A stretch of 64,000 bases of DNA from Acidobacteriota bacterium. Its GTDB lineage: Bacteria > Acidobacteriota > Terriglobia > Terriglobales > SCQP01. Where the stretch lies: assembly GCA_027459505.1 (NCBI GenBank), contig DAIDIE010000001.1, positions 26,318-90,317 of the forward strand. Direction: 5' to 3'. Made by a program: the position numbers and the translations under genes. The stretch's first letter is position 1, and each line of letters begins with the position of its first letter. A model generated the notes under the pieces. That model searched no databases. It had not been told where the DNA came from and was given only the letters and a program-made list of their open reading frames with translations. Positions 18,729 to 63,650 of this stretch are shown here, one piece after another.

Positions 18729-18792
18729 CTCGTAGCCTCCGCGGCGCCACCCTCTGCGGCGCCGGAATTGAATTTCTTGCCGCGCTGATGCC

Positions 18793-39973: not shown

Positions 39974-40389
<416 letters not shown>

Positions 40390-43562: not shown

Positions 43563-43661
43563 ACGCCCGTGGAGTGCTCTACTAGAGTACCAAAGCCCCC
43601 AGCAACTGCCAAACCGCGCGGCTCCGAGCCATTCGCAGCAAGGCTGGCGCGAACTGACCTC

Positions 43662-44936
43662 TCACGCAATCACCGGCAGCGCCATGGCATAACTAATCTT
43701 CAGCTTCGCCTGTGCCGTGCGCAGCGCCTGCTCCACCTCCGCCGGCGTCTCCGCGTGGGCAAAGATAAAGCCCAGATACGTTCCCCCTTCCGGCAGCGGC
43801 CGTAGCATCTGTTTCGGCTTTGCCGTGATCAGCACCTCTTCCACCCCAGGCACCTCGCGCGCCCGCTCCACCCCGCTCACCTTCTGCAGCAGTCCCCCAC
43901 TGCCAATGGGAAGCATGAACACACCTCGTGCGCCGCTAAAGTGCAACTGCGCCGGTGCGAATACCTCCGGCAGCAAACGCTGGATCAGCAGCCGCTCCAG
44001 TCCCGGCAGCGTCCGCGCGCACAGCCCGCCTATCGGCCGCGGCGCGGTCTCCAGCACATACGCCCGGCCGCCGCTCCATCGCACCTCGGCGTGCACCGGC
44101 CCATGCGCCAGTCCGCTGGCGCCCAGCGACGCGCGCACCGCCTGCTCGATCAGCTTCTGATCGCGTTGCGGCAGCCGCGATGGCGTAACGTAAATCGTCT
44201 CCTCAAAAAACGGCCCGTCCAGCGGATCGGGTTTGTCGTAGAGCGCCAGCGTCTCCAGCCGCCCTTCCCGCACGAACCCTTCCAGCACAAACTCCGGCCC
44301 GGGAAGGAAGTCCTCCACCAGAATGGTCTCCGCCGCGCTCGCGCCAGTTGACCGGATGGCCGGCTCCAGCAGAAGCTCGCGCGTGCGCTGAAACGCGGTG
44401 ATGAACTCCGCCGGATTGTTGGAGCGGATCACACCACGGCTGCCCGACAGATGCAGCGGCTTGCTGACCACCGGATAGTGCAGTCCCGCCGCCGTCCGCG
44501 CCAACTCCGCCGCGCTGATCTGCAGCGGCAGCAGGCGGTGCGCCGGCGCCGGCAAGCGCGCCGCCAGGTGCGCCATCCGCATCAGGTTCTTCCGCGTGCA
44601 AACCTGAACCGCCTCGGGCGTGGCGCCTCGCACGCCCAACCCGCGCGCCAGTTCGGCCGCGGTCAACGCCGCCCGGTCATCCAGCGCCAGCACCGCCGTA
44701 TTCTCCGCTCGGATGTCGCTCCACCGCCGGCGCAACGCCTCCAGCACCGGGGCCTGCGAGCCGGCCTCTTCAAACCGCACCGCCAGCGCCTGGTCTCCCC
44801 AGGGATCGTCCAGGTGCGAGCAGCGGTCCGAGACCAGGGCGCAGTCCACGCCCAGGCTAGCCGCCGCTTCGCGAAACGCCTGCGCCTGGTACCCCAGCTT
44901 GTTGGTCACCAGCACGAGTTGGGCTTTGCTCTCCAT
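43662..44936 (-). CDS. ATP-grasp enzyme (L-amino-acid-ligase / carnosine-synthase-like architecture)
   Basis: ATG 44936 (MESKAQLVLVTNKLG) lies 5 nt after the extended radical SAM stop. Motifs YPVVSKPLHLSGSRGV, ILVEDFLPGPEFVLEG and GPVHAEVRW...YVLETAPRPIGG are ATP-grasp hallmarks. The track start GTG 44993 is rejected. Confidence 0.8.
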   Translation of the reverse strand: MESKAQLVLVTNKLGYQAQAFREAAASLGVDCALVSDRCSHLDDPWGDQALAVRFEEAGSQAPVLEALRRRWSDIRAENTAVLALDDRAALTAAELARGLGVRGATPEAVQVCTRKNLMRMAHLAARLPAPAHRLLPLQISAAELARTAAGLHYPVVSKPLHLSGSRGVIRSNNPAEFITAFQRTRELLLEPAIRSTGASAAETILVEDFLPGPEFVLEGFVREGRLETLALYDKPDPLDGPFFEETIYVTPSRLPQRDQKLIEQAVRASLGASGLAHGPVHAEVRWSGGRAYVLETAPRPIGGLCARTLPGLERLLIQRLLPEVFAPAQLHFSGARGVFMLPIGSGGLLQKVSGVERAREVPGVEEVLITAKPKQMLRPLPEGGTYLGFIFAHAETPAEVEQALRTAQAKLKISYAMALPVIA

Positions 44937-44941
44937 GACGC

Positions 44942-46426
44942 TCAAATCAGACGGGCAAACTGCTCGTCGGTAGGCTCGCTTCAACAGAACCACGGCTCAT
45001 TTAAATACGGAATCGTCGCCCGCGCGGGCAGCACCACACCCGCCGCCGCGGCCAGTGGGGCGGCTTGCTGGTCTTCTTCGGCCTCGGCCGGAGTCTCAGC
45101 TACAGACTCCACCGCCCGCGTCAGGTTTCGCACCGCCGCAAAAATTCTTTCCCGCGTGGCCGCCACGCTGTTGGCCACCGCCGTCCCCGGCGCCGTCGCC
45201 GTTTGCACCAGTTCCTGCACCCGCAGGCACAGCTCATCAACCCTCGAGTCGGTGTGCCGCCATTCGTAGCTCAACTGCCGCGCGTTGAACTCGCCCAGCC
45301 AGCCCTCTTCCCGTCCCAGTTCCAATAGCCCGGAACCCTCGGGCAGCAATAGCCGCACCGCCAATTGAATGGGCGCCACCTGCGCTTCCAGCTCCAGCCG
45401 CTGCAACGCGTCGAGCATGCGCTGGTAGCTTTCCAGGCTGGTCCAGGGCGTGAAGGCGACCAGGGTCGGGTTCAGCGCTATCCCGTGCCGCCGCACCAAT
45501 TCCACCGCGCGCTCCACGTCCGCGCGCGTGTGCCGCTTTTGCAGCCGTTCCAGTACAGTATCGTCAAACGACTCCACCGCGCTGGTAATCAGCGCACATC
45601 CCGTGGCCTGCAATTCCGGCAGCAGCTCCGCATGTTGCAGCAGGTGCTCGACCTTTATAGTCGCGTCATAGGTGACTTCCGGAAACCGCGCATGCAGCCC
45701 TCGCACCACGCGCAACGCATGCGTGGGCCCATTCAGAAAATCAGGATCGCCGAAGGTGATGTGCTGCGCGCCCGCCTCGACCTGCTGCGCAATGTCGGCC
45801 AGCACCACCTCCGGCGCCACCACCCGGAACTGTCCCTGGTACACCGGAACGATGGGGCAGTGCCGGCAGTGGTGCTTGCAGCCACGGCTGGCCTCCGTGT
45901 AACCCACCAGCTTAGCCGCTCGCCCCTCCTGCTCCAGTTGTGCATAGCGGGAGAGAGGCGGTAATCCCACCCGTTCGGGTGGCACAAACGCCAGCCGCGG
46001 CACGCTCTGCCCTGCCTCAGCCGCCTCGCGCTCGCCCTCCACCCGGCCGTCACGCAGCGCCACCGCCAGCCGGCATAGCTCTTCTTCAAATTCCCCGCCG
46101 AGAACGCTGGCAAAGCCGTGCGCGCGCAAGAAGCGCGCATTCAGCGGCGCGTACAATCCATAGGCCGCCAGGTGCGCGGACCCGTTGAGTTCTTTCAACC
46201 GCGGCGCCAATTGCATGGCCAAGCGCGTCGCCGTGTGCATCGGCAGGTGGATGGCGATCAGGTCGGCCCCCCTCACCGCTTCCATCACCTGCGTTTCGTT
46301 CAGCGGCTGGCGCGAAAGATCAAACACCTCTACCGCGATCCCTGCGCGCCGTAGCCACGCCGCCGGCGAGGCCAGCCCAAAGGGCTGCCGTCCCATCTCG
46401 TAGGTGGCCATCAAAACAGCACGCAT
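44942..46426 (-). CDS. B12-binding-domain-like radical SAM protein, predicted selenoprotein (TGA 44981-44983 read as Sec; tail ...EPWFC-U-SEPTDEQFARLI)
   Basis: Radical SAM cluster motif SRGCKHHCRHCPIV (CX3CX2C). N-terminal MRAVLMATYEMGRQPFGLASPAAWLRRAG...DLIAIHLPMHTA region. An in-frame TGA directly after Cys is followed by 12 sense codons and a second TGA at 44942-44944. There is a hairpin 12 nt downstream of the first TGA. See findings. Confidence 0.7.
44950..44983 (-). other. Candidate Sec codon (44981-44983) plus SECIS-like hairpin (44950-44968)
   Basis: mRNA: UGA AGCGAGCCUACC GACG(A)GCA-GUU-UGC(C)CGUC. It has 7 base pairs with one A/C mismatch and G and U in the apical loop. The stem starts 12 nt after the UGA. 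Confidence 0.5.
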
Positions 46427-46587
46427 ATTTCGATCATAAAACGTGCGCAACGCTCCCGGGAATTTACACACCCTGCTGGCCGTCAATCCCGCGCCGGATC
46501 AGGTACGATTAAGTACGCATCACGTCCACGACGATGGAGACGAACCCGGGCTTCGGCCACGCCGCCGAGGTAGTGTATTTTCCCCGC

Positions 46588-47856: not shown

Positions 47857-48366
47857 ATGGATTCCAGCTCCCAGAGCTTCCTCGAACTATCCCGCCAGCA
47901 ATTCCTGCAGTGGATACCGCGCCTGCGCGCCGCCGTCGAGCCCCTCTCCCCCGAACAACTCTGGTGGCGGCCTAACCAACACTCCAACAGCGTTGCCAAC
48001 CTGCTGCTGCATCTCAATGGCAACGTTTCGCAATGGCTGTTGGCCAACGTTGGCGGGCTGCCCTATGAACGCCATCGTCCGGAGGAGTTCAGCGCCCGTG
48101 GGACGGCGACCGCGGCCGAGCTCCTGAATCCGTTGCAGGCCACCCTGGAACGCGCCGCGGAGATCCTCGCCACGCTGTCCGAAGAGGCCTTGCGGCGCGA
48201 ACACAGCATTCAGGGCTACGCGGTCAACGGAATGGCGGCCATCTACCACGTGGTCGAGCACTTCAGCATGCACTATGGCCAGATTCTCTACGTCGCCAAA
48301 TTGCTGCAGGATCGCGACCTCGGCTTTTACGCCCACCTCAACCGCGCTAAAACCGCTCAGCAGTGA
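47857..48366 (+). CDS. DinB/DUF1572 family protein
   Basis: Four-helix-bundle His pattern: NSVANLLLHLNGN ... HVVEHFSMHYGQI. Confidence 0.75.
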   Translation: MDSSSQSFLELSRQQFLQWIPRLRAAVEPLSPEQLWWRPNQHSNSVANLLLHLNGNVSQWLLANVGGLPYERHRPEEFSARGTATAAELLNPLQATLERAAEILATLSEEALRREHSIQGYAVNGMAAIYHVVEHFSMHYGQILYVAKLLQDRDLGFYAHLNRAKTAQQ

Positions 48367-48381
48367 CCCTAGCGCTGCGCG
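48326..48381. repeat. Left copy of 56-bp direct repeat (contains the DinB-family stop and a 4-codon aroA-tail remnant)
   Basis: TTTACGCCCACCTCAACCGCGCTAAAACCGCTCAGCAGTGACCCTAGCGCTGCGCG is 54/56 identical to 59465-59520. The offset is 11,139 bp. Confidence 0.9.
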
Positions 48382-48419
48382 CCTTCCACACCATGGCGCG
48401 TGTCGACGATCAACCGCAC

Positions 48420-48899
48420 TCACCGCCGGCCTTGTTTCCTGCCGGCACACGAGTGTATATAGTCGTTCACGTTGATGGCGTGCCAATCGCCGTTCTCGAT
48501 TTCCTCGCGGATCTGCGCCGGCGTCTTTCCCTTACGTGTTTCCTGGTAGGCGAACGCGGCTTCCATCAAGCACACTTCGCAGACCGAGGCGTGATCGGAA
48601 ACATAGCAGTCCAGCAGACTGCGGTGCCCCAGCGTTTTGTCGCAACGGCAATAGCAGGGGAGTTGGTACAGCACTGGCTTGATCTTGGCGGCCAAGGCAT
48701 AGATGTTGCGCACTCGCGGATCCTGATACTTGCTTGGGGGTTGCACCGCTGGCAGCGGACCCGGCGGATGGGCGTGGTAGGCTGGCGCGGCCCCCTTCGC
48801 CGGCGTCGCCGCCGTTACATGATCCGCACCTGCGGGCGTTTGCGCGGCAGCCAAGCCCAACAGTGCCCAGGCGCCAAGAATAAAACGCAAACGGGTCAT
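48420..48899 (-). CDS. Secreted PCYCxC-motif protein
   Basis: ATG 48899 overlaps the upstream stop (ATGA). Signal peptide MTRLRFILGAWALLGLAAAQ. Motif LPCYCRCDKTLGH plus a downstream CEVC. It resembles the family annotated as PCYCGC-motif (lipo)proteins (from memory). Confidence 0.65.
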   Translation of the reverse strand: MTRLRFILGAWALLGLAAAQTPAGADHVTAATPAKGAAPAYHAHPPGPLPAVQPPSKYQDPRVRNIYALAAKIKPVLYQLPCYCRCDKTLGHRSLLDCYVSDHASVCEVCLMEAAFAYQETRKGKTPAQIREEIENGDWHAINVNDYIHSCAGRKQGRR

Positions 48900-49954
48900 C
48901 GTTTTCCCTCTCTCTCTTCCGGTCGCAACGGTGCCAGTGGCGCTAAGCGGAAACAACTCCGGCTGCTGCCATTGCCGTCAAAAAGCCGAAGCCTCCCGCG
49001 CCGGATGGCGTGCAGACCGTTCCGCAAACGCCTGCGGCGGTTACGGCTGGCACGAATCTCCCGGGCCAGCAACAGCCCGGCTGCATCGGCTTCCTGCCAA
49101 AGCACTGGCTTGTGCGGTCGCAAGGAATTGACTCGGCAAGGTTGCACCCCCGCCAACTCGGACTGGCCAACCACCTGCGCCCCGCCATCACTCATTGGCG
49201 CAAAGAGCCCGGCGGATCGCCACGATAAAAGCACCTCCGCCCGATTCGACTGGCTCCAGCGCCGCAGCATTGACTCAGTCTCCGCGGGTCCTGTCCAGAA
49301 AACGACAACGTGCACCCCTTGGAGAGCATCCACCGCCGCGTCCTCGCTGGCCAGCAGCACCTTTGGCGCACTCACTCCAAGCGCCTTCGCCGCCGCTAAA
49401 AACGCCAGCTCCCCCTCGCGGCCGTCGTGATCGTTTGCCGTTACCAGCAGAACGCGAGCCGCTGATCTCCCCCCCGTGCGGTAGACGGCGTGGGCTAGCA
49501 GTTGCGCCTGTTGGCGATCGCTGGGCGCCACCCGGAATATCCAGGACAGATGAGCGCTGGTCGTCGTGTTGTCGCTGGCGGTGCTGACGACCGGGACGCC
49601 GAGTTTGGCGGCGATCAACTCGCAGAGGTGCGTAGTCTCACCGTCGGGCGCAAGCAGCGCCAATGCGTGGTCGGCGAAGGCCAGTTGGACGACTTTGCTC
49701 GTCGTTTGGCCCCATTCCTGGCTGGCATCGGCCACATCCACATCAACGCACGGCACTCCCCTCAATCCCGCCCGAATCCCTTGCAACCAAGCCTCCCCAG
49801 CCGCTTTCTCCCGCCCCCGCAACCCCGCCACAACCCCTATAGAAGTGGCGCCGGCGCATGCATGCTCCACGCCCTGCGGCGATTGCGCCGCCGTCACCGC
49901 AATGCCGCCCAACAGCGACACCAGCAACCCCACCATCGCCCGGCCCCCGCTCAT
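48896..49954 (-). CDS. Periplasmic binding protein, type 1 (LivK/Peripla_BP_6-like)
   Basis: Signal peptide, then SIGVVAGLRG...WLQGIR...PVVSTASDNTTT...IFRVAPSD...ARVLLVTANDHDGREG, a pattern like ABC branched-chain amino-acid/amide binding proteins. ATGA overlaps at both ends. Confidence 0.6.
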   Translation of the reverse strand: MSGGRAMVGLLVSLLGGIAVTAAQSPQGVEHACAGATSIGVVAGLRGREKAAGEAWLQGIRAGLRGVPCVDVDVADASQEWGQTTSKVVQLAFADHALALLAPDGETTHLCELIAAKLGVPVVSTASDNTTTSAHLSWIFRVAPSDRQQAQLLAHAVYRTGGRSAARVLLVTANDHDGREGELAFLAAAKALGVSAPKVLLASEDAAVDALQGVHVVVFWTGPAETESMLRRWSQSNRAEVLLSWRSAGLFAPMSDGGAQVVGQSELAGVQPCRVNSLRPHKPVLWQEADAAGLLLAREIRASRNRRRRLRNGLHAIRRGRLRLFDGNGSSRSCFRLAPLAPLRPEEREGKR

Positions 49955-51333
49955 TGCCCCCCGCTAATCTTCTCGAATTTGAACTGCCGGTGCTCCACCC
50001 GCGCTACGGGAACGGGGGCAATATCGTTGAGCGTGTAATCGAAGAAGCTTGGCCCGCTCACCCCACAGTAGCCCTTCATCTCATAATTCTTCAGTGCCTC
50101 CATAATCCCTGGGCGGCTCAAGCCGCCGCGCTGAATGGCGCCGATCAATATGTTCATGCCGTCATAGGCCCGCGCCGCATACGCATCCGGCAGCCGATGG
50201 TAGCGCTGCTCGAACTCCCGGCGGAATGCCCGCCAGCGCGGATCGGTGCGGGTGGGATCAAGAGCGCAGGTCACAACCAGGCCATTGGCGGCCGCTCCGG
50301 CCGCCTGCAGAAAGCGTTGCGTGCATAAGCGGCTACCGCCGAAGACGGCCGCCTGGATGTGCGCCGCGCGCAGCGCCCGCAGCTGAACCGCCGCACCCCT
50401 TGGACCACCCCACAGCACTACGGCCTGCGGATGCGTCGCCGCAATGATTCGGGCCAACCGCGCCGCGCTGTTGGGATTGGTCTGCGCGGGATCGTATTCC
50501 AACTCCGCCACCGGTGGGGCGCCGGCGCGCCGTGCCACATTGACGAACTCCCGGATCCCGAGACGCCCATACCGGCTAACGCTCACCAAAACCGCGATCC
50601 GTGTCAACTTCCGCCTTCGAAAAATAACATTGGCTAGCGCATATCCCTGCTGCCGGTCGTCGGGAAACTCCCGCAGCAGCCACGGTACCCGCGTCTCGGT
50701 CAGCGTCGGGTCGGAAGTGCCGGTATTCACTATCGGCAACCCCACCTTCAACGCGACCCGCAGTGCGACGTGCGTGCTGACCGCGTTTATCGATCCCAGC
50801 ATCGCCCAGACGTGTTGACGAAACACCATGTCCGCGATTTCGTTGGCCGACGATCCCCACAGTGCGGCATCGTTGTGGAGTCTAAGAACATAGGGAATGC
50901 CCGCACCCCCCGAGCGGAGATGGAATCCCCCCTTGGCATTGGCTTGCTCCACGGCCAATTGCGCGCCCTCAAGCATTGCGAGCCCAAAGCCGTGTCCGCG
51001 CGCGCTCTTTTTAATGGGACCGAGCAGTCCGATGGCCACTTGCTGCGGTGCCCGATCACTCTCCCCCGTCACCTGGTTCGGCGTCCGGTCGAGCCGCAGC
51101 GTTTCCGGCGACAGATACCACTCGTGGTACGGCTTGGCGAAATGACGGAACGCGACCGCCGCCAGCGGCATGTTGGCGTAGCGCAAGTGCGCGGCTGCCG
51201 GTGTCGGCGCGCACCCCCCCGGCAGTTGCGCGCCGCTGAGCCCGCTCAGCAACAAGCCAATACCTATCAGCCTCAGCCGCCAAAGCATAAACCCTCCTGC
51301 TCTCATCCGCCTACTTCGATTCCGGCGATTCAA
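49951..51333 (-). CDS. Periplasmic binding protein, type 1 (LivK/Peripla_BP_6-like), paralogous in architecture to the next gene
   Basis: VAIGLLGPI...MLEGAQLAVEQANAKGG..., GSINAVSTHVALRVALKVGLPIVNTGTSDPTLTE..., REFPDDRQQG..., IAVLVSVSRYGRLG. The start is uncertain (51333, 51306 or 51288). Confidence 0.65.
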   Translation of the reverse strand: MNRRNRSRRMRAGGFMLWRLRLIGIGLLLSGLSGAQLPGGCAPTPAAAHLRYANMPLAAVAFRHFAKPYHEWYLSPETLRLDRTPNQVTGESDRAPQQVAIGLLGPIKKSARGHGFGLAMLEGAQLAVEQANAKGGFHLRSGGAGIPYVLRLHNDAALWGSSANEIADMVFRQHVWAMLGSINAVSTHVALRVALKVGLPIVNTGTSDPTLTETRVPWLLREFPDDRQQGYALANVIFRRRKLTRIAVLVSVSRYGRLGIREFVNVARRAGAPPVAELEYDPAQTNPNSAARLARIIAATHPQAVVLWGGPRGAAVQLRALRAAHIQAAVFGGSRLCTQRFLQAAGAAANGLVVTCALDPTRTDPRWRAFRREFEQRYHRLPDAYAARAYDGMNILIGAIQRGGLSRPGIMEALKNYEMKGYCGVSGPSFFDYTLNDIAPVPVARVEHRQFKFEKISGGQ

Positions 51334-51799
51334 AAATCGCCATGCATTCCATCTCGATCAGCAGGTCGGGACGGCAGAGAATCGCCTGAATGCCGGTCGA
51401 AGCCGGCAGTGGCGCCAGTTCCTGCCGCCGGAAAAACTCCGTGCGGATTTCGTTGAAGGCAACATAGTCGCGCTCAATATCCCGCAGGTAGCACGTGGTG
51501 CGAACGACATCCTTCCAACTTGCGCCCTCCGCTTCCAGCAGAGCGGTGATGTTTTGGTAGGTTCTCCAGGTCTGCGCGCTAAAGTCTCCCAGGTGGATCG
51601 TCTTGCCGTGCTCGTCAATACTGGCCGTTCCGGATATCATCAGGATGGTGACTCCCTTGATGTCCAGACGCAAACCGCGCGAAAACGACACCGGCTGCGG
51701 GTAATCGTAGGCCTCACAAAGGTTTTTGAGCGCGGTTATGGGTTGTTTCGCGATCGGCACGTGGGCCGCCGGCTGACTCGGTGCGAGGATGGAACTCAT
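51311..51799 (-). CDS. RidA/YjgF/chorismatase-superfamily protein
   Basis: ATG 51799 with AAGGAGA RBS. ILMISGTASIDEHGK..., QTWRTYQNITALLEAEGASWKDVVRTTCYL.D...F...R, and ...PASTGIQA.L......IEMECMA resemble the RidA fold. No signal peptide. Confidence 0.65.
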   Translation of the reverse strand: MSSILAPSQPAAHVPIAKQPITALKNLCEAYDYPQPVSFSRGLRLDIKGVTILMISGTASIDEHGKTIHLGDFSAQTWRTYQNITALLEAEGASWKDVVRTTCYLRDIERDYVAFNEIRTEFFRRQELAPLPASTGIQAILCRPDLLIEMECMAIFESPESK

Positions 51800-51800
51800 G

Positions 51801-52904
51801 CTAATTCTCCTTTTTGAATAGGGGTTGTGGGTTGAGCCCGAGACTGACGCCTTGGGCCGTGGCCACCCAAAGGCGGCCCGGTTGAAAAGCAACATCGTAG
51901 AGATAGGCGCTCGCGGGAGCAGTGGCGGTCTTGCGCCTGGCCGCGACTCGGCCGGCGCCGTTGACCAGCTCGACTTCGGTTCCTGCACCCTGCCGCCGGT
52001 AGACAATCCATCGCCGGCGGGCCGGCTCAAACTCATTCAGCCCGCGATTGGTGCAAATCCAAACCGCCGCTCCGCGAGCATGAACCTTGTTGATGAAGTT
52101 CGAAATCAATCCGCTGTCGCTGGCCAAATAGTTGTGCCAATCGCGGCCGTCATACCCGCTCAAGCCGAAGTAAGTGCCGGCCCACCACCATTGCGTGGCC
52201 CGGTCGTAGCTCACCGAGGAGACCACGTCATTGACCAGTCCCTGATTGCGGAACAGCACGATTTCCGGCGACTGGTTGGGGTTGGTGAAGGGGCGCCAGT
52301 AACGGCCCCGTTGGTTGTACTCCAGAATTCCGCTGCCCCACATCGCCACCAGCACCCGTCCGGGTGCGACCGTCACCCCATATCCCCATGGATCGCCCAT
52401 GGGCGCGTTCTCCTGCGTGTACGTGGTCCATTCCTGGGTGTCCGGATCGAACCGGCTCACCCCGGCCGCCGTCGCAAACCACAGCGTGCGCCCTTCAATA
52501 GCGATCCCGTAGACAACGTTGTTCACCAATCCGCTGTTGAGCTGGGTGTAGTTATGGAACACACCGCCGGAATATTGGCTGACCCCGCCAAAAGTCCCGA
52601 TCCAAAGATCGCCCGTTTGCGGATCCGGCGCTAGCGACAAAACCGCCTGCTGGACCAGGCCGTCCTTGCTCGTCAAAGTCTTCCAGCGGCCGTGGCGGTA
52701 ATACGCCAAACCGTTTTCCGTTCCCGCCCAAACGCGGTGCCCTTGTAACGCAAGGCAGAAAACCCGCCCCGGCGGCAAGCCCTCCCTGGGCCCAAAGTTT
52801 TGCCAACGCGTGTAAATGATCGGCGCTGGCGCCACTGCCGGCGCCGCGCCCACCAGGGCGGCGACCAGCCCCACCACAATTGCGAGATGAAGTGTCCGAT
52901 TCAT
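51801..52904 (-). CDS. Secreted beta-propeller protein (two-component-regulator-propeller-like repeats)
   Basis: Signal peptide MNRTLHLAIVVGLVAALVGAAPA. Repeated ...WAGTENGLAYY..., LWIGTFGGVSQY, LWFATAAGVSRF, WWAGTYFGLSGY, VWICTNRGLNEF and LWVATAQGVSL units. Confidence 0.65.
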   Translation of the reverse strand: MNRTLHLAIVVGLVAALVGAAPAVAPAPIIYTRWQNFGPREGLPPGRVFCLALQGHRVWAGTENGLAYYRHGRWKTLTSKDGLVQQAVLSLAPDPQTGDLWIGTFGGVSQYSGGVFHNYTQLNSGLVNNVVYGIAIEGRTLWFATAAGVSRFDPDTQEWTTYTQENAPMGDPWGYGVTVAPGRVLVAMWGSGILEYNQRGRYWRPFTNPNQSPEIVLFRNQGLVNDVVSSVSYDRATQWWWAGTYFGLSGYDGRDWHNYLASDSGLISNFINKVHARGAAVWICTNRGLNEFEPARRRWIVYRRQGAGTEVELVNGAGRVAARRKTATAPASAYLYDVAFQPGRLWVATAQGVSLGLNPQPLFKKEN

Positions 52905-52920
52905 GTTTTCCTCGCCAGCG

Positions 52921-54780
52921 CTAGAACGTGTGCAGATACTGAATGAGGTCGTTGAGATCGCGCTTGCTCATTCCGGCGATAACTCCGTGCTTTTGCGTCT
53001 GGTTGTATTTGGTCCAGATTTCTTCCAGCGAGCGCGCTTCGCCATTGTGCAGGTACGGCGGACTGAGCGCGATTTCCTCCAACTGCGGAATATCCACCCT
53101 TCCACCGTGAAAGCAGGAATTGTCGTCGGCGGCCGTCATCGTGCCCACATTCACGCTGAAGCGCGCCGTGCCATGCGACGCTGGGTTGTGGCAGCCGGCG
53201 CAGCCCATGTTGTCGAACAGGGCCTTGCCGCGCCGCTGCTGCCGCGTCAGTGGTTGGCCAACGCGGTGATAAGGATTCGGGGGCAGCGGTATCGAGCTCA
53301 CAAAAGCCACCAGATCTTCCAGCTCCCTCTTGTGGCCCAGAAATCCCTGCGACCGGAAAATGATCGCCGCCGCGCCCACGCCGTCCTGCGTTTCCAGGTT
53401 GGGGCTGCTGGCGTTCCAATTGAACGGAGCCGTTCCGGCAATTCCCCGCAGCGTGCGTACGGTGACCCGGCAGCGCCCCATGGTTCGGCTTTGCAGGTCC
53501 CACGCCAACCCGTTTTGATCGCCTTCCGGATGGCAACTCGCGCAAGCGACCCCGCCTTGGTAGGCGAAGCGAGCGCTATAAAACAACCGTTGCCCGCGCC
53601 GCCGCGGCGTGATGGCTTCAACGCCATTGAGCGGGATTGTCGCCGTCGTCCAGGTGCGCAAGTCAATGCGCGTGAGGGAGTCGTCCAGCCGGTTGACAAC
53701 TACCGCAAAGCGCCCGGCCGGCGCCACCGCCACCGCCACCGGATCGCGTCCGCTCGCAATCTCGCGCTCTTCAAAGCGCGCCGCCGTGTCCATGCGATCG
53801 GCCATCCGCGCCGGGGGATGGCCGAGCAGCCCCAACAGGCCGCGCGTGTCAAACACTGCAACGCGATTGGAGGCCGCGCTCGTGACTAGAATGTGTCCTC
53901 CGCCTCTGGTGAAGGCCAGACCCTCGGGTAACGCGAAGCCACGCTCCATCGAGTCCAGCGGAAATTGCAGCGTGGCCGGCGTTGTGCCCTCTCTGGGAAG
54001 CAGTGCGGCCATGGCGTTGTTCAGCGTCCAGCCCTGGGAAACGCGGACGATGGGCACCTCGTTGTGCGGGCGAATCTCAGGAATCAAAATGACGCCGGGC
54101 CAAGGGCGGGGCGCCTCCGCCGGCGTGCGCAACTGAACCGCATTGGGCACCGCGATGCGCCGGGCCACGGTAAGGCTCGCAACCCGGATCACCGTCACCT
54201 CCGATACCGGCGCTTGGTCATAAGGATGCAGCGGCGCTTGGAGGCCCGAAACGTAGACATACCGGCCACCGCGCGACAGCATCACCCCATGCGGCCAACG
54301 CCAGGCCGCAAGCCGCTTCAACTCCTTGCCCGTCTTCAGATCGTCGATCGAAACGTCGTTGCTTTCGCTGTTGGCGATGAATAGATGCCGCCCCTCGCGA
54401 TCAGTCGTCAGGCCAACCGGCCCCCAGCCAGTAGGCAACGTGCGCAGCAGGCCAAGACTGTGCGCGTCAAGTTCGCTGACATTGTTCGCCCAGGTGTTCG
54501 AAACGAAAAGGGTGCGGCCACCGGACGCTATGGCCAGCCCGGATGGGTGCGCACCCACTGTGGCACGGCGCAGAATCTTGCCCGAAGCCGCATCCAACGC
54601 CAACAGCTCGTTGCTGCCTTGGCACAGCACATAGAGCGTGCGCCCGCTGGGCGAAAAAACGACCGCCTCGGGATCAAGATAGTGCGGCGCGCCCGCCGCG
54701 GGCGCGCCCTGAGCGCCGCTGCCGTACCCTACGGCGGCCATCACCAACAACACGCAAGACCGGCGCCAGCGCTTAAACAT
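52921..54780 (-). CDS. Secreted YVTN-type beta-propeller fused to a di-heme cytochrome c peroxidase/MauG-like domain
   Basis: Signal peptide. Blades GRTLYVLCQGSNELLALD, GRTLFVSNTWANNVSELD, GRHLFIANSESNDVSIDD and GRYVYVSG. Two CxxCH sites (CASCH, CAGCH). C-terminal PPYLHNGEARSLEEI is typical of CCP/MauG. Confidence 0.75.
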   Translation of the reverse strand: MFKRWRRSCVLLVMAAVGYGSGAQGAPAAGAPHYLDPEAVVFSPSGRTLYVLCQGSNELLALDAASGKILRRATVGAHPSGLAIASGGRTLFVSNTWANNVSELDAHSLGLLRTLPTGWGPVGLTTDREGRHLFIANSESNDVSIDDLKTGKELKRLAAWRWPHGVMLSRGGRYVYVSGLQAPLHPYDQAPVSEVTVIRVASLTVARRIAVPNAVQLRTPAEAPRPWPGVILIPEIRPHNEVPIVRVSQGWTLNNAMAALLPREGTTPATLQFPLDSMERGFALPEGLAFTRGGGHILVTSAASNRVAVFDTRGLLGLLGHPPARMADRMDTAARFEEREIASGRDPVAVAVAPAGRFAVVVNRLDDSLTRIDLRTWTTATIPLNGVEAITPRRRGQRLFYSARFAYQGGVACASCHPEGDQNGLAWDLQSRTMGRCRVTVRTLRGIAGTAPFNWNASSPNLETQDGVGAAAIIFRSQGFLGHKRELEDLVAFVSSIPLPPNPYHRVGQPLTRQQRRGKALFDNMGCAGCHNPASHGTARFSVNVGTMTAADDNSCFHGGRVDIPQLEEIALSPPYLHNGEARSLEEIWTKYNQTQKHGVIAGMSKRDLNDLIQYLHTF

Positions 54781-56479
54781 GCTTCCCCCTGGCCGTCTCC
54801 TCTTCCGCTTCGGTAACGGTCACAATCTGGTCGGCCCGGGTCTGGCCCAGTCGCTGCACGACCCCGCTTGGCCAATGAACCTCGACCTGATCGGCATGAG
54901 TCGCCCGCCCCAGACCGAAGTGCGGCCGGGAGTCGCTTTGCGAGAGATATCCGGAAGCGGAAACGCACTCAATCATCTGCCGATGTCCGCCGGCGGTGAC
55001 GAAAACGCGCGCCCCATAACCATTGCGATTGCTTCGCCGCCCCACCAGACGCAACTTCAGCCAGTGGTGCGGATCCGGCCCGCGCGCCGTGTTCTTCAGC
55101 AGCACCCCGTCCCCATTCAGCGATATCAGAAAGGCGCCCATGCGGCCGTCGTTGTCGAAGTCGGCAAAGGCCGCCCCACGCCCCACCAAACGGCGCCGGA
55201 AGATCCCGCCACCCGCCTCGGAAACGTCGCTGAAGCGCGCCCCTTCCGCCCCGGCGCCCATATTGCGCAGCAGCGAAGGCTCCATCGCCACCGGCCAGTT
55301 CAACCCCCCGTTGAGAATGAAGATATCCTTCCAGCCGTCGTTGTCGAAGTCGAAAATTCCGTCGCCCCAGGAGACGTATTGCCCGGATATCGCGGCTACT
55401 CCCGCGGCTACCGTGACATCGTCGAAGCCGCGCGCTCCGCGGTTGCGGAAAAGACGGTGATAGTGCGTGTCGGTGACAAACAGATCAAGCTGGCCGCGGT
55501 TTTCCAGATCGGCGAAAATCGGCCCCATCGCCGAATCGGTTTCGCCGTCCTGCCCGTAGGCCACCCCCAGCTCCGCCCCCACCTCGCTAAAAGTGCCGTT
55601 GTGGTTGTTATGGAAGAGATAGCTCTCCATGCTGTCGTTGGCGACGTAGATATCGGGCCAACCGTCGTTGTCGTAGTCGCCAACCGTCACGCTCATCGCC
55701 CTGCCACCCGGCTTGAACACGCCAGCGTCATGCGTCACGTCGCTGAACGTGCCGTTGCCGTTGTTATGAAAAAGCCGGTTCGATTCCCCGTCGTAGTTGA
55801 GCGGCCCGGGAAAGTGATCGGCGCCGTAGTAGGTGCGCAGGCGGGGATCGAAACGCAGGTAGTTGCCCACGAACAGGTCCAGACGGCCATCGCGGTCGAT
55901 ATCCACCCACGCGGCGCCCGTCCCAAAACGAGGATTGCCCACGCCCGCTTGGGCGGTGATATCCGTGAACGTTCCGTCGCCGTTGTTGTGATACAGAATC
56001 GCCGAACCGTAGTTGGTGACGTAGATGTCATCGAATCCGTCGTTGTCGAAATCACCCACCGTCACGCCCATGGCGAACCCCCGGCCACTCACGCCTGCTT
56101 TCGCCGTCACATCGGTGAAGGTGCCGTCGCCATTGTTGCGATAAAGACGATTGCCGGCATCCTGGCGCGTCGCCGGCGAGCTATCAGTGACTCCCGGTAT
56201 GTAGCGCCCGTTGAGAACATACAGATCCAGCAGGCCATCGTTGTTGTAGTCCATCCAGGCGCAGCCCGATCCCGTGGCCTCGACGATGTTGCTCAAGTCG
56301 GTTTCGCCGAAAACATGGCGGAACTCGATGCCCGCTCTTCGCGTCACGTCGCGAAACAGCGGCCAGCCCTGAGGCGCGGTAGGGGCGGCGGTACGAACCG
56401 GCCGCGCCAGCCCGCGCATCGCCCAGGCGGCGGGCGTCGCCGCCAGAAACTGCAGCAGCTGTCTCCGGGAAGTCTTCAT
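54773..56479 (-). CDS. CRTAC1-like protein: Tat-signal, FG-GAP/VCBS repeats, ASPIC/UnbV C-terminal domain
   Basis: ATG 56479 gives MKTSRRQLLQFLAATPAAWA (twin-arginine signal). Repeated NNGDGTFTD(V/I)T and DYDNDG/DFDNDG units. C-terminal SASGYLSQSDSRPHFGLG. The start overlaps the upstream TAA by 1 nt (TAATG). Confidence 0.8.
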   Translation of the reverse strand: MKTSRRQLLQFLAATPAAWAMRGLARPVRTAAPTAPQGWPLFRDVTRRAGIEFRHVFGETDLSNIVEATGSGCAWMDYNNDGLLDLYVLNGRYIPGVTDSSPATRQDAGNRLYRNNGDGTFTDVTAKAGVSGRGFAMGVTVGDFDNDGFDDIYVTNYGSAILYHNNGDGTFTDITAQAGVGNPRFGTGAAWVDIDRDGRLDLFVGNYLRFDPRLRTYYGADHFPGPLNYDGESNRLFHNNGNGTFSDVTHDAGVFKPGGRAMSVTVGDYDNDGWPDIYVANDSMESYLFHNNHNGTFSEVGAELGVAYGQDGETDSAMGPIFADLENRGQLDLFVTDTHYHRLFRNRGARGFDDVTVAAGVAAISGQYVSWGDGIFDFDNDGWKDIFILNGGLNWPVAMEPSLLRNMGAGAEGARFSDVSEAGGGIFRRRLVGRGAAFADFDNDGRMGAFLISLNGDGVLLKNTARGPDPHHWLKLRLVGRRSNRNGYGARVFVTAGGHRQMIECVSASGYLSQSDSRPHFGLGRATHADQVEVHWPSGVVQRLGQTRADQIVTVTEAEEETARGKHV

Positions 56480-58074
56480 TATTGTTCTGCTCCTTGAACG
56501 GGACTGGCGCCGGAACCCGGCGGCATTGGCGGCATCCGCCTGCACAGCGTCACTGAACACTGCTTCCGCGTTCCCCGCTGCGCTGCGGGCTTCAACATCG
56601 AAACCGTTCTTCTGCTCGCGCCGGTCTTGGAACGCCGCGGCACGCCGGTCCTCTTTCCGCCGCCCTGCGTCCGCGCTGCCGGCGCCCCCGCGGCAGTCGC
56701 TGCCGGCCCGCCAATGACGTAAGGAATCCGCTTTCGCCGTAATATCAGCGGCCACCGGTTCGGCGGCGCAAGCGCCTCACTTTCGTGACAGCCGGTGCAG
56801 GCGTGTTGCTCGTCCGGGCGCACCCAGATCCAGCTCCGCTGCTCCCGCAACACCCGGTCAGCCGCATCCAGCAGTTGAAACCGGATCGCCCGGTCCGCGG
56901 CTACTTGCACATAAAACGACCCATCACTTGCCACCGGCGCCGTGCCCAGCGTTTCCGAGCCATGCGAACTCCGCCCCAAAATCCGCACCCGCACCGCCGC
57001 GGCGGCCACGGCCCGTGGGTTCATGCTGAGGCGGCTGTTCAAACACAATAGTTGCCCCTCCCCCATGCGGTAGAGCGGCAAGTTCAGCCACTGCAAAATG
57101 CTTGGATACACCAACGGCGCCGCATGCGCCTGCAAGCGAACCACTTCCACCAGCGACCCTGCCACCCCATCCCCGCGCAACAGCGGCCGCACGCGGTGTG
57201 TGCGCGGATGAAACATGACGGGAAGATAGCGACTGCCCCTGCGCTGGGAGGCCACTACCCACCCGTTCTCGAACGGGCGTGGCCAATACAAACTTCCGGT
57301 CTCGATCCCCAGCGGCAACGCCCGCACCGCCCCCGCACGCAATTCCCACAGTGTCGCGGCTCGGCCCGGTTGTTGCCCGCGGAAGACGAGCGTGCCCGCT
57401 GCGATTTCTGCCGCTTCTGTATTTCTCGTGCCGGTGTGCGTCACGTCGCGCAACACCCGGAGGCCGGAGCCGTCGGGATGAAGTACGTAGAGCTGCCGGC
57501 TCCGTTGCACCAGCCCCGGCGCGCGCAGTGGCCATCCCGCTGAAACCAGCAGTCGGCCGTCGTGCAACACGTCCTCCAGCCGGAAGTCCCCGGGGCCGAA
57601 CGTGATCGGCTGGGTCGCTGCGGAGGCTGTGCGCACATAGATCTGGGCCCGCCCCCGAACCGACTCACCTGTATACGCGATGGCGCCTTCCGCCAGATAC
57701 AAAGGGTGAAGGCAGTTGTCGCGACCGTGGGTCAGCTGCCGCAAACCCGTGCCATCCGCCTTCAATGTCCAAACTTGCCAGCGAGAATCCGCTTTACGTT
57801 GGGCGGAAAAAAGAATCTGTTTGCCGTCGAACGAGACTTCCGGATCGCGAACGGCAAAAAACGGCAGGTTCAGCACGGTTCGATCGCGCTTGCCTCCGCT
57901 CCCCACCAACACAAGTTTGCTGCCCCTTGGAAAACGGCGGATCAGCCGGCCGGCATCCACCGCGGGCGCCTCAACTCCTACCCAACGAACACTCCGCGCA
58001 CCGGAGCTCTGGGCTGAAAGGATGGCGCCGGCGAGCAAACCGGCGGTCAAGAAAATGATGATTCGACGAGCCAT
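56479..58074 (-). CDS. Secreted PD40/TolB-like beta-propeller protein with C-terminal CxxCH heme motif
   Basis: ATG 58074 gives MARRIIIFLTAGLLAGAILSAQ. Then FDGKQILFSAQRKADSRWQVWTLKADGTGLRQLT (PD40-like). The C-terminal LGTAPVASDGSFYVQVAADRAIRFQLLD......WIWVRPDEQHACTGCHE resembles the segment annotated in some databases as the hydrazine-synthase-alpha middle domain (from memory). Confidence 0.7.
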   Translation of the reverse strand: MARRIIIFLTAGLLAGAILSAQSSGARSVRWVGVEAPAVDAGRLIRRFPRGSKLVLVGSGGKRDRTVLNLPFFAVRDPEVSFDGKQILFSAQRKADSRWQVWTLKADGTGLRQLTHGRDNCLHPLYLAEGAIAYTGESVRGRAQIYVRTASAATQPITFGPGDFRLEDVLHDGRLLVSAGWPLRAPGLVQRSRQLYVLHPDGSGLRVLRDVTHTGTRNTEAAEIAAGTLVFRGQQPGRAATLWELRAGAVRALPLGIETGSLYWPRPFENGWVVASQRRGSRYLPVMFHPRTHRVRPLLRGDGVAGSLVEVVRLQAHAAPLVYPSILQWLNLPLYRMGEGQLLCLNSRLSMNPRAVAAAAVRVRILGRSSHGSETLGTAPVASDGSFYVQVAADRAIRFQLLDAADRVLREQRSWIWVRPDEQHACTGCHESEALAPPNRWPLILRRKRIPYVIGGPAATAAGAPAARTQGGGKRTGVPRRSKTGASRRTVSMLKPAAQRGTRKQCSVTLCRRMPPMPPGSGASPVQGAEQ

Positions 58075-58567
58075 ATTGCAGAGCGTGCCCACGGATGCTG
58101 ACGGCCATCTCATTTCTTCTCTTCCGTCGGCGCAGTCCGTATGTAATAGCACCGCCGCCCCGGATTCCATGACAATTCGCAGGAAAACGCCCGTAGTTCA
58201 CCATAAACAGCGAACTAGTCTGGCGGCATCGAGAGAGGTACTCGAAAGGCATTAGCATCCCTGGCAGGACCAGAGGCAGTTCGAATCGGATTGACTTGGA
58301 AATTGCAGGCCAAAATGCCTTGGGCGTTGCGCGGGCGCGCAGCGCCGGCACGCCGCGTCATGAACTGGCGCCGGCAAGGGACGTATGGGGAAAGAGCCGT
58401 GCCGCATGCCCTGAGGTTCTGGGAACGGGCCGCCGGCGTGAGTTATCGAGAAGTCGCGGTGACGTTGTGGCCGCCTCGGGGAATGGCGGTTGCGATGCTG
58501 CCTTCCCGAGACAGCGGCCGGCGGTGGAGCGTGTTACTGTCGCGCCGCCCCCGCGCGTTGGCAAAGC

Positions 58568-59263
58568 TTAGGCGTCCGGATTGCCGGCTTTTGCGCGCAG
58601 CTCGGAAAGTGCGCGGATCACTACCCGCCGCCCGTTGATGCGCGCCACCCCTTCATTCCGCAGAACGGTCAAGGCGCGACTGACTGTTTCTGCGCTCAGG
58701 CCGAGCAGTTCCCCGATTTCCTGCCGCGACAGCGGCAGCTGCAGCGCAATCGGACTGCTTCCGGGCGTCGGGCTGGGGAGAAGACTCAGCAGAAATGACG
58801 CGACCTTGGCGCAGGCGTCACGCTGTCCGCCAGCCCCGATTTGCCCTCGGTTCCTCGCCGCGTCCCGCAAAAGGAATCGCATCAGCGCCAGGGCTAACTC
58901 AGGCCGCTGGGTCATCGCCGCCAACAGCGCTTCGCGAGGAGCCGCACAGATGTCGCATTTGCCTATCGCCACCGCCCGCAAGGGATAGCATTCTTCCGCC
59001 ACTGCCTCCAACCCAAACAAATCGCCGGCCTGCACCAGACGGGCAATCCGCGAGTGCCCGTCCTGCAGATCGTCAATGATTTTTATATTCCCAGCCCTCA
59101 CGGCATACACATGGCGAGCCTCGCTCCCATGCAAAAAAATCACTTGATCAGCGCCTACGGGAGCCGGGCGAAAAAGGCAAGTCAGCGCGGAGCTGGCGGC
59201 TCTATCGAAACCGCCCGCTCGTAGCGTGGCAACCACAGGACACGTCTGGCATCGCGCTCTCAT
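58568..59263 (-). CDS. Crp/Fnr family transcriptional regulator with Cys-rich N-terminus
   Basis: cNMP-binding-like barrel (...GDLFGLEA...) and C-terminal HTH LSRQEIGELLGLSAETVSRALTVLRNEGV. The N-terminal MRARCQTCPV...LTC plus the later CDIC offer FNR-like Cys ligand candidates. Confidence 0.8.
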   Translation of the reverse strand: MRARCQTCPVVATLRAGGFDRAASSALTCLFRPAPVGADQVIFLHGSEARHVYAVRAGNIKIIDDLQDGHSRIARLVQAGDLFGLEAVAEECYPLRAVAIGKCDICAAPREALLAAMTQRPELALALMRFLLRDAARNRGQIGAGGQRDACAKVASFLLSLLPSPTPGSSPIALQLPLSRQEIGELLGLSAETVSRALTVLRNEGVARINGRRVVIRALSELRAKAGNPDA

Positions 59264-59385
59264 ATTCGCGTTTCTCGCATTCGGTCAGCCAGCAACGCTG
59301 GCCCACAGGCACGGGCGGCCTTCCTTCCGGCGATTAAGGCAGCGTACCAGACCGGTATGGCCAAATGGGGTGTTCCGGAACCGTT

Positions 59386-59399
59386 TTGATCATGACCAA
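59386..59399. promoter_or_regulatory. FNR/CRP-type box upstream of the Crp/Fnr gene
   Basis: TTGATCATGACCAA compared with consensus TTGAT-N4-ATCAA (one mismatch). It is centred about 130 nt upstream of ATG 59263. Confidence 0.4.
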
Positions 59400-59464
59400 C
59401 TTCCTATGGTCAACCGGAGGGAAAGCCCTGCGGTATACTCGGTCACTTGTCCTACTGAAACTGG

Positions 59465-59520
59465 TTTACGCCCACCTCAACCGCACTAAAACCGCTCAGC
59501 AGTGACCCTAGCGCTGTGCG
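59465..59520. repeat. Right copy of 56-bp direct repeat (contains the aroA stop and a 13-codon DinB-tail remnant)
   Basis: TTTACGCCCACCTCAACCGCACTAAAACCGCTCAGCAGTGACCCTAGCGCTGTGCG. On the + strand it reads ...VYAHLNRTKTAQQ*, against the intact DinB-family C-terminus FYAHLNRAKTAQQ*. Confidence 0.9.
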
Positions 59521-60830
59521 ATCCGCTCCAGCGTGTCGTAGAACTCCGGATACGAGATCGAGGCGCACTCGGCGTCTTCTATCACCGTTTCGCCCTGCGC
59601 CTTCAGCGCGGCGATGGCAAACGCCATGGCAATGCGGTGGTCCCCAAAGCTGTTGATGCGCGCTCCCCGCAGCGTCTGCTCGCCCGGCACGCGCAGCCCG
59701 TCCCGGCGCTCCTCGCACTCCACCCCCATCGCCCGCAGGTTGTGCACGATGCTCACAATCCGGTCGCTCTCTTTGACGCGCAGCTCCGCCGCATCCTGAA
59801 AATCCATGCCGCTATCGGAGACGGTAGCCAGCACCGACAGCACCGGGATCTCGTCAATCAGCGCCACCGTCTCCTGTCCCGCCAGCGTCGTTCCCCGCAG
59901 CCGTCCGCGCGCGGGGCCACTCACCTGGATGGTCCCCACCAGTTCGCCGCCGCGGTCTTCAATGTGCAGGATCTCGATCTGCGCGCCCATGCGGCGCAGC
60001 ACATCGAGCAACACCGCGCGCGTGGGATTCAAGGAAATCTCCTGCAGCACCAGCTCCGAGCCGGCAAACATCGCCCCGGCGCACAGGAAAAACGCCGCCG
60101 AACTGGGGTCGCCGGGAATGCGGTACTCCTGTGGCTGCAATTCCGCCACCGGCCCGCTCACGCTTACCCGCTGCCGCCCCCGCCGTACTTCAACGCCAAA
60201 ATTTCGCAGCGCCAGCTCGGTATGATCGCGCGTGGGCTGCGGCTCTTCCACCGTGGTCTCGCCCTGCGCATACATGCCGGCCAGCAGGATGGCGCTCTTC
60301 ACCTGCGCGCTCGCCACCGGCAACGTGTAAGTAATCCCCTGCAGGCTCGTCACCGGAGAAAAGCGCAGCGGCGGACGCCCGCCCTCCTCGGCCCCAATAT
60401 TGGCCCCCATCTCCAGCAGCGGCTTGATCACCCGCGCCATGGGACGGCGCGCAATCGATTCGTCCCCGGCGATCACCGAGGCAAACGGCTGCGCCGCCAG
60501 AATGCCGGAGAGCATGCGGATCGCGGTCCCGGAATTCCCCGCGTCCAGCACGCGCTGCGGCGCCTGCAATCCGCGCAGGCCGACGCCGTGAATGGTGATC
60601 TCGCCCTTCTCGCGATCGCTTTCCACCCGCACTCCCATGGTCTGCATGCAGGCCAGAGTGCTGTGGCAGTCCGCTCCCGAGGAGTAGTGCGTCAATTTGG
60701 TGACCCCCGCCGCCAGGCTGCCCAGCATGGCGTAGCGATGCGATATGCCCTTATCACCCGGCGGTGCGACTGTTCCGGAGAGATTGCGGGCGGCGAGGAT
60801 GGTGCGTGTGGCGACTTGCGTCTGCGTCAA
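59508..60830 (-). CDS. aroA: 3-phosphoshikimate 1-carboxyvinyltransferase (EPSP synthase)
   Basis: PPGDKGISHRYAMLG, LDAGNSGTAIRML and GDHRIAMAFAIAAL. TTG start at 60830. Confidence 0.9.
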   Translation of the reverse strand: MTQTQVATRTILAARNLSGTVAPPGDKGISHRYAMLGSLAAGVTKLTHYSSGADCHSTLACMQTMGVRVESDREKGEITIHGVGLRGLQAPQRVLDAGNSGTAIRMLSGILAAQPFASVIAGDESIARRPMARVIKPLLEMGANIGAEEGGRPPLRFSPVTSLQGITYTLPVASAQVKSAILLAGMYAQGETTVEEPQPTRDHTELALRNFGVEVRRGRQRVSVSGPVAELQPQEYRIPGDPSSAAFFLCAGAMFAGSELVLQEISLNPTRAVLLDVLRRMGAQIEILHIEDRGGELVGTIQVSGPARGRLRGTTLAGQETVALIDEIPVLSVLATVSDSGMDFQDAAELRVKESDRIVSIVHNLRAMGVECEERRDGLRVPGEQTLRGARINSFGDHRIAMAFAIAALKAQGETVIEDAECASISYPEFYDTLERIAQR

Positions 60831-60865: not shown

Positions 60866-60924
60866 GAGTTGTCAGTTGTCCGTTTGTCCGTTGTCAGTTG
60901 TCCGTTGTCCGTGGACCGTGGACC
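60866..60924. repeat. GACAAC-type repeat block (family E3, inverted orientation)
   Basis: GAGTTGTCAGTTGTCCGTTTGTCCGTTGTCAGTTGTCCGTTGTCCGTGGACCGTGGACC is the reverse complement of GGACAAC/TGACAAC units. Confidence 0.7.
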
Positions 60925-62880: not shown

Positions 62881-62988
62881 GAGTGCCCCACTCAACGCCT
62901 TTTGTTGAGTGGGCATCGCCGAGGTCATGTGCGCCGCCAACTCCTCGCAACTCCCCACCGGCAACTGACAACCGACAACTCGTCAACG
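62881..62988. repeat. ~108-bp composite repeat: hairpin + conserved spacer + GACAAC-type tail (copy 1)
   Basis: GAGTGCCCCACTCAACGCCTTTTGTTGAGTGGGCATCGCCGAGGTCATGTGCGCCGCCAACTCC...CAACTGACAACCGACAACTCGTCAACG. It has a 10-bp stem CCCACTCAAC/GTTGAGTGGG. It is about 90 percent identical over the first ~80 nt to 63541-63650 (by eye). Confidence 0.85.
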
Positions 62989-63540: not shown

Positions 63541-63650
63541 CGAGTGCCCTTTCAACGCCTTTTGTTGAGTGGGCATCGCCGAGGTCATGCGCGCCGCCAG
63601 CTCCCGGCAACTCCCCACTTGCAACCGACAACTGACAACCGACAACTGAC
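63541..63650. repeat. ~110-bp composite repeat (copy 2, hairpin degenerate)
   Basis: GAGTGCCCTTTCAACGCCTTTTGTTGAGTGGGCATCGCCGAGGTCATGCGCGCCGCCAGCTCC...CAACCGACAACTGACAACCGACAACTGACA. Confidence 0.85.

Follow-up and report, generated by a model that had tools for sequence, protein, structure and literature searches.

A 56-bp duplicated gene junction brackets an 11-kb operon block that probably entered between a DinB-family gene and aroA in an uncultured acidobacterium

Between a DinB-family gene and aroA of an uncultured soil acidobacterium lies a block that is made up of a Crp/Fnr-family regulator gene and an eight-gene operon and is bracketed by two copies of a 56-bp direct repeat. The locus was studied within a 64-kb stretch of one contig (64,000 nucleotides, called the window throughout), and it raises the question whether the two flanking genes were once direct neighbours and by which route the operon came to stand between them. 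Our analyses indicate that the block was quite probably inserted into a junction at which the two genes formerly abutted. Site-specific recombination of the tyrosine-integrase type, with the recombinase since lost or acting in trans, is a serious candidate for the route, its chance being a little short of even.

A degenerate search of the window with the 56-mer returned exactly two matches, both on the + strand and identical at 54/56 positions, while the dinucleotide-preserving shuffles gave 0 matches in 100/100 cases. The copies differ by G/A at repeat position 21 and by C/T at repeat position 53, and the longest stretch identical between them is 31 nt. Outside both repeat ends the in-register identity drops to 15-25% in the adjacent 20-nt blocks, and a search on both sides for decayed homology extending past the 56 bp found none; these sharp borders indicate a precise duplication and not the best-kept core of a longer, decayed one. 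Besides the 56-mer, the whole-window scan for exact repeats of at least 20 nt revealed three pairs only, all of them local (20-660 bp apart). Neither a terminator-like site nor a significant RNA structure was detected within the 56-mer (z-scores -1.5 to 0). The two mismatches may reflect either some age after a true duplication or attachment sites of an element and of the chromosome (attP and attB) that differed originally.

The contig appears to be metagenome-assembled. The structure could in principle be an assembly artefact, an 11-kb block having been joined to the dinB/aroA junction by mistake. Against this, the two copies differ at two sites and have at most 31 exact bases in common, the block ends share nothing else with the junction, and both flanking genes read through cleanly. 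Given the two mismatches, the limit of 31 shared bases and the unrelated block ends, no path of a de Bruijn graph would lead to this structure unless the repeat were real, and we regard a faulty join as very improbable.

Inspection of the repeat revealed that it is built from the ends of the two flanking genes. The TGA stop codon of the DinB-family gene (48364-48366) is followed by CC and then by CTA at 48369-48371, which is the minus-strand TAG after ...AQR. Of the DinB-family gene, the left copy contains the last 12 codons in full, 2 nt of the codon before them and the TGA. The CTA of the right copy (59508-59510) is the real stop codon of aroA, and the repeat also covers the last three aroA codons. 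In the orphan DinB tail of the right copy a Thr codon (ACT) stands in place of the Ala codon (GCT) of the intact gene; Thr occurs in that column in several homologues, which is too weak to tell which copy changed. Alignment with ten homologues showed that the DinB C-terminus (DLGFYxHL...) is conserved, residues L155, G156, F157, Y158 and L161 being invariant, and the aroA C-terminus ...LERIAQR aligned with ...LERLAER and ...LEQIAQR of its relatives. Since both tails align with the C-termini of homologues, the truncated copies are real fragments of a DinB-family gene and of aroA. The 56-mer therefore joins the native ends of two genes, 2 nt apart, and its simplest source would be an ancestral convergent arrangement of the DinB-family gene and aroA with nearly abutting stops.

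Most of this had been proposed in an earlier note on the same DNA. The 56-bp direct repeat that it described was confirmed by the window search, the shuffles and the border check; the reading frames bear out its picture of an intact DinB-family gene with an aroA tail remnant on the left and an intact aroA with a DinB tail remnant on the right; and its view that the two genes were once convergent neighbours holds on structural grounds, both tails aligning with homologue C-termini. Its account of the repeat content was right as to the TGA and the aroA end but counted 13 DinB codons, where 12 whole codons and 2 nt of another are present. The length of 11,139 bp that it gave for the insertion is the repeat period, that is, the insert plus one repeat copy, and the unique inserted DNA amounts to 11,083 bp. 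Domain searches of the nine genes agreed with its description of the insert as a Crp/Fnr regulator plus an eight-gene operon.

Distant hydrazine-synthase-homologue clusters, comprising clades I-III, were described by Hagglund et al. 2025 (PMC12758564). In the published cluster, alpha-like and beta-gamma-like genes flank a CRTAC1 gene and two binding-protein genes lie downstream (PMC12758564). Judged by its sequence, the cargo of the insert matches these clusters, as both domain matches and synteny indicated. The window operon has the same order of alpha-like, FG-GAP/CRTAC1 and beta-gamma-like genes with two substrate-binding genes downstream, while it differs from the published clusters in being the most divergent acidobacterial copy seen (43-48% identity). 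Comparison with related operon loci (n=43, from a scan of species-representative genomes, gene order being determined by tblastn) showed synteny of the core cluster with at least 40 loci. The core order was found in Planctomycetota, Verrucomicrobiota, Bacteroidota and Acidobacteriota, with different neighbours each time. The neighbours of the related loci were ordinary genes, namely those for glycogen phosphorylase, GMC oxidoreductase, BNR/sortilin and cytochrome c proteins and an unrelated DinB-family protein.

Three acidobacterial loci (L014, L049 and L052) have the Crp gene in front, followed by the alpha-like, FG-GAP, beta-gamma-like, Reg_prop, RidA and binding-protein genes, as in the window, where the insert forms a complete functional unit. 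The FG-GAP protein of the window is 58-60% identical, and the first binding protein (49951..51333) 48-49% identical, to their counterparts at these loci. The window operon has neither the DAHP-synthase-family gene found in L052 (13659-14564) and L014 (13712-14617) nor the GMC oxidoreductase gene found in L052 (17145-19046) and L049 (13069-14796). With no DAHP-synthase-family gene of its own, the window operon adjoins aroA, another shikimate-pathway gene, which may be a coincidence. The CYCXC gene at the end of the insert had a tblastn counterpart in 0/43 related loci and therefore joined the block separately. In L014 a DinB-family gene (PF05163; 17589-18227, - strand) is convergent on the 3' end of the operon, a chance echo within a very large superfamily. 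It suggested an ancestral linkage of DinB and the operon, which was rejected because no similarity was detectable between the two DinB proteins.

The composition of the block was then compared with that of its surroundings. The GC content of the insert is 0.634 and that of the rest of the window 0.636. The tetranucleotide distance of the insert to the rest of the window is the largest among all same-size sliding windows. The synonymous codon usage of the window is fitted less well by the nine cargo genes than by the remaining 43 (Mann-Whitney p=0.0015), with strong differences for Leu, Arg, Gln, Thr and Pro, and in a nine-gene sliding scan the worst codon fit fell exactly on the cargo frame (-1.623). 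The absence of an obvious compositional shift, remarked on earlier, thus held for GC and did not hold for synonymous codon usage and tetranucleotides, in which the insert is the most deviant part of the window, to a modest degree.

Protein comparisons pointed the same way. The acidobacterial homologues of the beta-gamma-like protein share 51-91% identity with one another, but the cargo protein shares 43-48% with each of them; aroA is 59-66% identical to the members of its clade and falls inside the internal range of that clade (59-87%). Among 5.8 billion proteins, the best non-self match of the beta-gamma-like protein reached 48%, and the best matches of the flanking genes reached 60% (DinB) and 66% (aroA). 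Indirect support for a foreign origin comes from the codon usage, from the outlying beta-gamma-like protein and from the finding of this operon in further phyla, amid unrelated neighbours. Together these results favour separate histories for the block and its flanks, and we infer that the cargo was acquired. If the operon is native instead, fast evolution or low expression may have caused these differences.

A native origin could have taken the form of a rearrangement in which the operon already lay near aroA and a tandem duplication over the dinB-tail/aroA junction was followed by deletions, after which single copies of both genes, the intervening operon and the orphan tails remained. The insert resembles its neighbourhood in GC content and gene orientation, and the operon family is present in other Acidobacteriota, as such a history would have it. 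It would nevertheless take at least three events with precise end points where insertion takes one, the window shows no sign of another copy of aroA or of the operon, and the codon usage of the cargo and its outlying divergence speak against long residence. A rearrangement of native genes is accordingly an improbable source of the structure.

In the reconstruction that we favour, the DinB-family gene and aroA would initially have been convergent, with stops 2 nt apart, and the 11,083-bp block of the Crp/Fnr gene and the eight-gene operon would have entered at this junction. The attP site of a circular element, itself a 56-bp copy of the junction, would have recombined with the junction on the chromosome (attB), and the recombinase gene would later have been lost or would never have lain within the segment, its product acting in trans. 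The 56-bp junction standing at both ends would keep the 3' ends of both genes complete, the orphan tails (13 nt of aroA, 41 nt of dinB) being the scar. The outcome would be an island with no integrase between attL-like and attR-like repeats, the pattern of a cis-mobilizable element (CIME).

The site-specific route is preferred because repeats this long that rebuild the 3' end of a target gene are the normal signature of tyrosine integrases. In actinomycete integrative elements such as pSAM2, att identity extends over ~50-60 bp (~58 bp in the pSAM2 type) and lies at gene 3' ends. Tyrosine integrases insert classical genomic islands and integrative elements at 3' ends of tRNA, tmRNA or protein genes, an example being the Dehalococcoides ssrA islands (PMC3146451). 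The segment resembles classical islands of this type in that the repeat rebuilds the target gene 3' end and leaves the gene intact, that the repeat length is in the known range, and that a metabolic operon is the cargo. The direct repeat containing the target 3' end was found, the att role of the repeats being assigned by analogy, and no integrase gene was found inside the element. The segment differs from classical islands in that the defining integrase gene beside the att site is absent, the GC is not deviant and no tRNA is involved. We infer a recombinase as the agent of insertion, and the two repeats may by analogy still work as att sites. A rare RecA-mediated loss of the block, restoring a single junction, is conceivable, given the 31-nt perfect stretch common to both copies.

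CIMEs are elements that have kept attL and attR but lost their integration and transfer genes, having decayed from integrative and conjugative or integrative and mobilizable elements (ICEs or IMEs; PMC5704250, PMC6323972). Like a CIME, the segment lies between direct repeats that contain the target gene's 3' end, has no integrase or transfer genes and carries adaptive cargo, so that attL-like and attR-like ends with no integration or transfer genes between them are present structurally. The segment differs from CIMEs in its target, which is composed of the 3' ends of two convergent protein genes, and in its host, CIMEs being mainly from Firmicutes and not from Acidobacteriota. Mobilisation of a CIME in cis follows the integration of a cognate ICE at one of its att sites; for the repeats in the window, which are putative att sites, no cognate ICE or integrase is known. 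Decay from an ICE or IME was not seen, and related operon loci also have no such element.

Several observations weigh against site-specific insertion of a mobile element. All nine open reading frames (ORFs) of the insert and the gene-like ORFs elsewhere in the window were scanned against Pfam, the cargo being searched against NCBIfam as well, and no integrase or other recombinase, transposase, relaxase, phage gene or other mobile-element gene or pseudogene was found. Within the scope of these gene-like ORFs, the earlier statement that integrase, transposase and tRNA target are missing is confirmed. In contrast to CIMEs, no remnant of any ICE or IME module was found in the segment, where non-coding space does not exceed ~400 bp. 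The room for a mobile remnant is small, with 38 bp from the left repeat to the stop codon of the last gene, ~200 bp between the Crp/Fnr start and the right repeat, and 397 bp in the gap between crp and the operon. The 56-mer has no clear core-type inverted repeats except for a 6-bp GCGCTA/TAGCGC pair. No bracketing repeats were found around the related operons in the 43 loci, where the only repeat pair (32 bp, in L033) is located within the operon, and no mobility genes were found beside these loci, so that the operon was not seen on such an element elsewhere. A 26-mer of the junction had 0 exact matches in genome, metagenome and viral contig collections, from which the source genome itself is absent, and a 20-mer of the left end of the repeat had 0 matches in viral contigs; no empty site, attP or circular form turned up in those collections. 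The GC content is unchanged in the insert, and the codon shift is modest, another region of the window coming near it (-1.591 vs -1.623); low expression could be its cause.

The window's only tRNA gene (Glu, 43486-43562) was rejected as a target, as it lies 4.8 kb off and no fragment of it is repeated in the window. The contigs of the closest DinB (57-60%) and aroA (61-66%) homologues showed no dinB-aroA adjacency and no shared neighbours, and so speak neither for nor against an empty site; no close relative turned up in any of the collections searched. Taken together, the reading of the earlier note is reasonable and partly supported, its support being indirect.

The lack of mobility genes and of their remnants would also be accounted for by an illegitimate insertion in one step that needed no dedicated recombinase and truly duplicated 56 bp of the target. 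A linear or foreign 11-kb fragment would then have been captured either at nicks staggered by 56 nt and filled in, or by template switching at a fork or break-induced repair returning 56 nt upstream. Such an event would likewise explain why the cargo matches one regulator-plus-operon unit so tightly, why the repeat borders are sharp and why related operons have no bracketing repeats. A 56-bp duplication of this origin has, as far as is generally known, no bacterial precedent at such length, and random breakage catching exactly the whole operon and its regulator would be a lucky event. We consider this route rather unlikely, though deserving of attention. A narrower version, that of a recombinase-free operon cassette making a true 56-bp target duplication at abutting convergent gene ends, for example by a long staggered cut with fill-in or by template-switch copy-in, is doubtful; if true, it would add an undescribed route by which bacteria gain operons.

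Transposition and Xer-mediated integration agree less well with the locus. DDE transposons and casposons also copy the target sequence directly at both ends of the insert, but the 56-bp duplication is several-fold longer than those known for them, and neither transposase nor Cas1 nor terminal inverted repeats were found, the inverted repeats at the insert ends not rising above shuffles (score 17 vs 15.4 +/- 2.2). The defining features of these elements are thus not seen here, and to our knowledge a duplication of 56 bp lies far beyond those of bacterial transposition or casposon-type reactions. Integrative mobile elements exploiting Xer (IMEXs) have no recombinase of their own and are flanked by repeated dif-like sites of 28 bp at the replication terminus. 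An integrase-less element of the IMEX type, using host XerC/XerD at a dif-like site, would suit a target between convergent genes. The cumulative GC skew, however, is monotonic through the site, hence this is not the replication terminus, and the 56-mer has no dif core of the TTATG or CATAA type; on these two counts the Xer/dif route was rejected, and we give it hardly any credence.

The features of the locus are collected in Table 1.

Table 1. Genes, repeat copies and gene remnants at the locus, in window coordinates
Feature	Position	Strand	Evidence or remarks
DUF1572/DinB_2-family gene, intact, 169 aa	47857..48366	+	Pfam DUF1572 1.7e-18, DinB_2 6e-14
Left repeat copy (attL-like)	48326..48381	.	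DinB tail, 2-nt spacer, 13-nt aroA tail remnant
Orphan aroA 3' remnant (…AQR + TAG), 13 nt, no aroA body	48369..48381	-	Register as at true aroA stop
Inserted segment, nine genes	48382..59464	-	No mobility gene, no terminal inverted repeats
CYCXC/PCYCGC-family gene, last of insert	48420..48956	-	NCBIfam NF041379 96.4 bits (cut-off 90); Pfam PCYCGC
Periplasmic substrate-binding protein (Peripla_BP_6), second of two	48896..49954	-	Pfam
Periplasmic substrate-binding protein (Peripla_BP_6), first of two	49951..51333	-	Pfam 1e-37
RidA/L-PSP-domain gene	51311..52036 (ORF as listed)	-	Pfam Ribonuc_L-PSP 6e-19, residues 130-234
Reg_prop beta-propeller protein	51801..52904	-	Pfam and related-locus comparison
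Beta-propeller and di-haem cytochrome c protein, distant hydrazine synthase beta-gamma fusion homologue	52921..54780	-	Pfam YNCE, Cytochrom_C, CCP_MauG
FG-GAP/ASPIC-UnbV (CRTAC1-family) protein	54773..56755	-	Pfam FG-GAP_3 3.9e-52, UnbV_ASPIC 3e-21
Distant hydrazine synthase alpha homologue (propeller and HZS_alpha middle domain)	56479..58170	-	Pfam HZS_alpha 1.2e-17
Crp/Fnr-family regulator, first gene of insert	58568..59263	-	Pfam cNMP_binding, HTH_Crp_2, Crp
Right repeat copy (attR-like)	59465..59520	.	DinB tail remnant, 2-nt spacer, true aroA 3' end
Orphan DinB-family 3' remnant (…YAHLNRTKTAQQ, then stop), 41 nt	59465..59505	+	Read from sequence and homologue alignment
aroA (EPSP synthase), intact	59508..60830	-	Pfam EPSP_synthase 4.8e-110

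The product of 56479..58170 also matched NCBIfam hydrazine_alpha (6.9e-18, under the family cut-off), and the beta-gamma-like protein matched NCBIfam hydrazine_BC (2.5e-29, far under the cut-off). The true start of the FG-GAP gene is probably near 56500 and that of the RidA gene probably near 51720. An FNR/CRP-box-like palindrome, TTGATCATGACCAA, is located at 59386-59399, inside the right end of the insert and ~125 bp upstream of the Crp/Fnr gene. It has 1 mismatch to TTGAT-N4-ATCAA, for which ~0.9 chance matches are expected per window, and is hence weak.

Outside the insert, arrays of the heptamer GTTGTCC/GTTGTCA (~6 copies, 60868-60912) were found directly upstream of the aroA start. They occur again, inverted, in two intergenic regions to the right (62947-62981 and 63622-63661), where they form part of a 93-nt unit that is repeated at 89% identity (62887-62979 and 63547-63639) and opens with a perfect 10-bp-stem hairpin (CCCACTCAAC...GTTGAGTGGG). 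A 20-nt exact repeat, TCCTCGTCCTCATCCTCATC, is present at 39974 and 40103 (39974-40122), between the genes for a CarboxypepD_reg-domain protein and a peptidase M20, and resembles a low-complexity acidic or repeat-coding stretch. Positions 9266-21099 (- strand) carry a long fatty-acid/polyketide-type cluster with four ketosynthase-like genes, two short-chain dehydrogenases of the ketoreductase/enoyl-reductase type and a FabA-like dehydratase, together with an acyl carrier protein, an AMP-ligase, a DegT-type aminotransferase and a myo-inositol-1-phosphate synthase. The region 43486-46486 comprises the tRNA-Glu(CTC) gene (43486-43562, - strand), and next to it genes for an ATP-grasp/L-amino-acid ligase and then a B12-binding radical SAM protein; ATP-grasp and radical SAM genes are often paired in peptide-modification loci.

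The kind of event seen here is known already, namely a repeat-flanked island with no integrase at gene 3' ends, and its cargo is a published cluster; the event is fairly ordinary in kind, and the traces of gene gain that it left are clean and include no mobility gene. The finding alone reveals no new mechanism. Island finders that are based either on an integrase or on a GC shift are expected to miss insertions that have neither. Patchy spread of the hydrazine-synthase-homologue family across phyla has been noted in the literature. If our reading is true, the locus would record with unusual clarity how an acidobacterial lineage that has been poorly sampled acquired an operon, with the old gene order still legible from two orphan gene tails, and would provide one concrete case of a hydrazine-synthase-homologue cluster moving between genomes.

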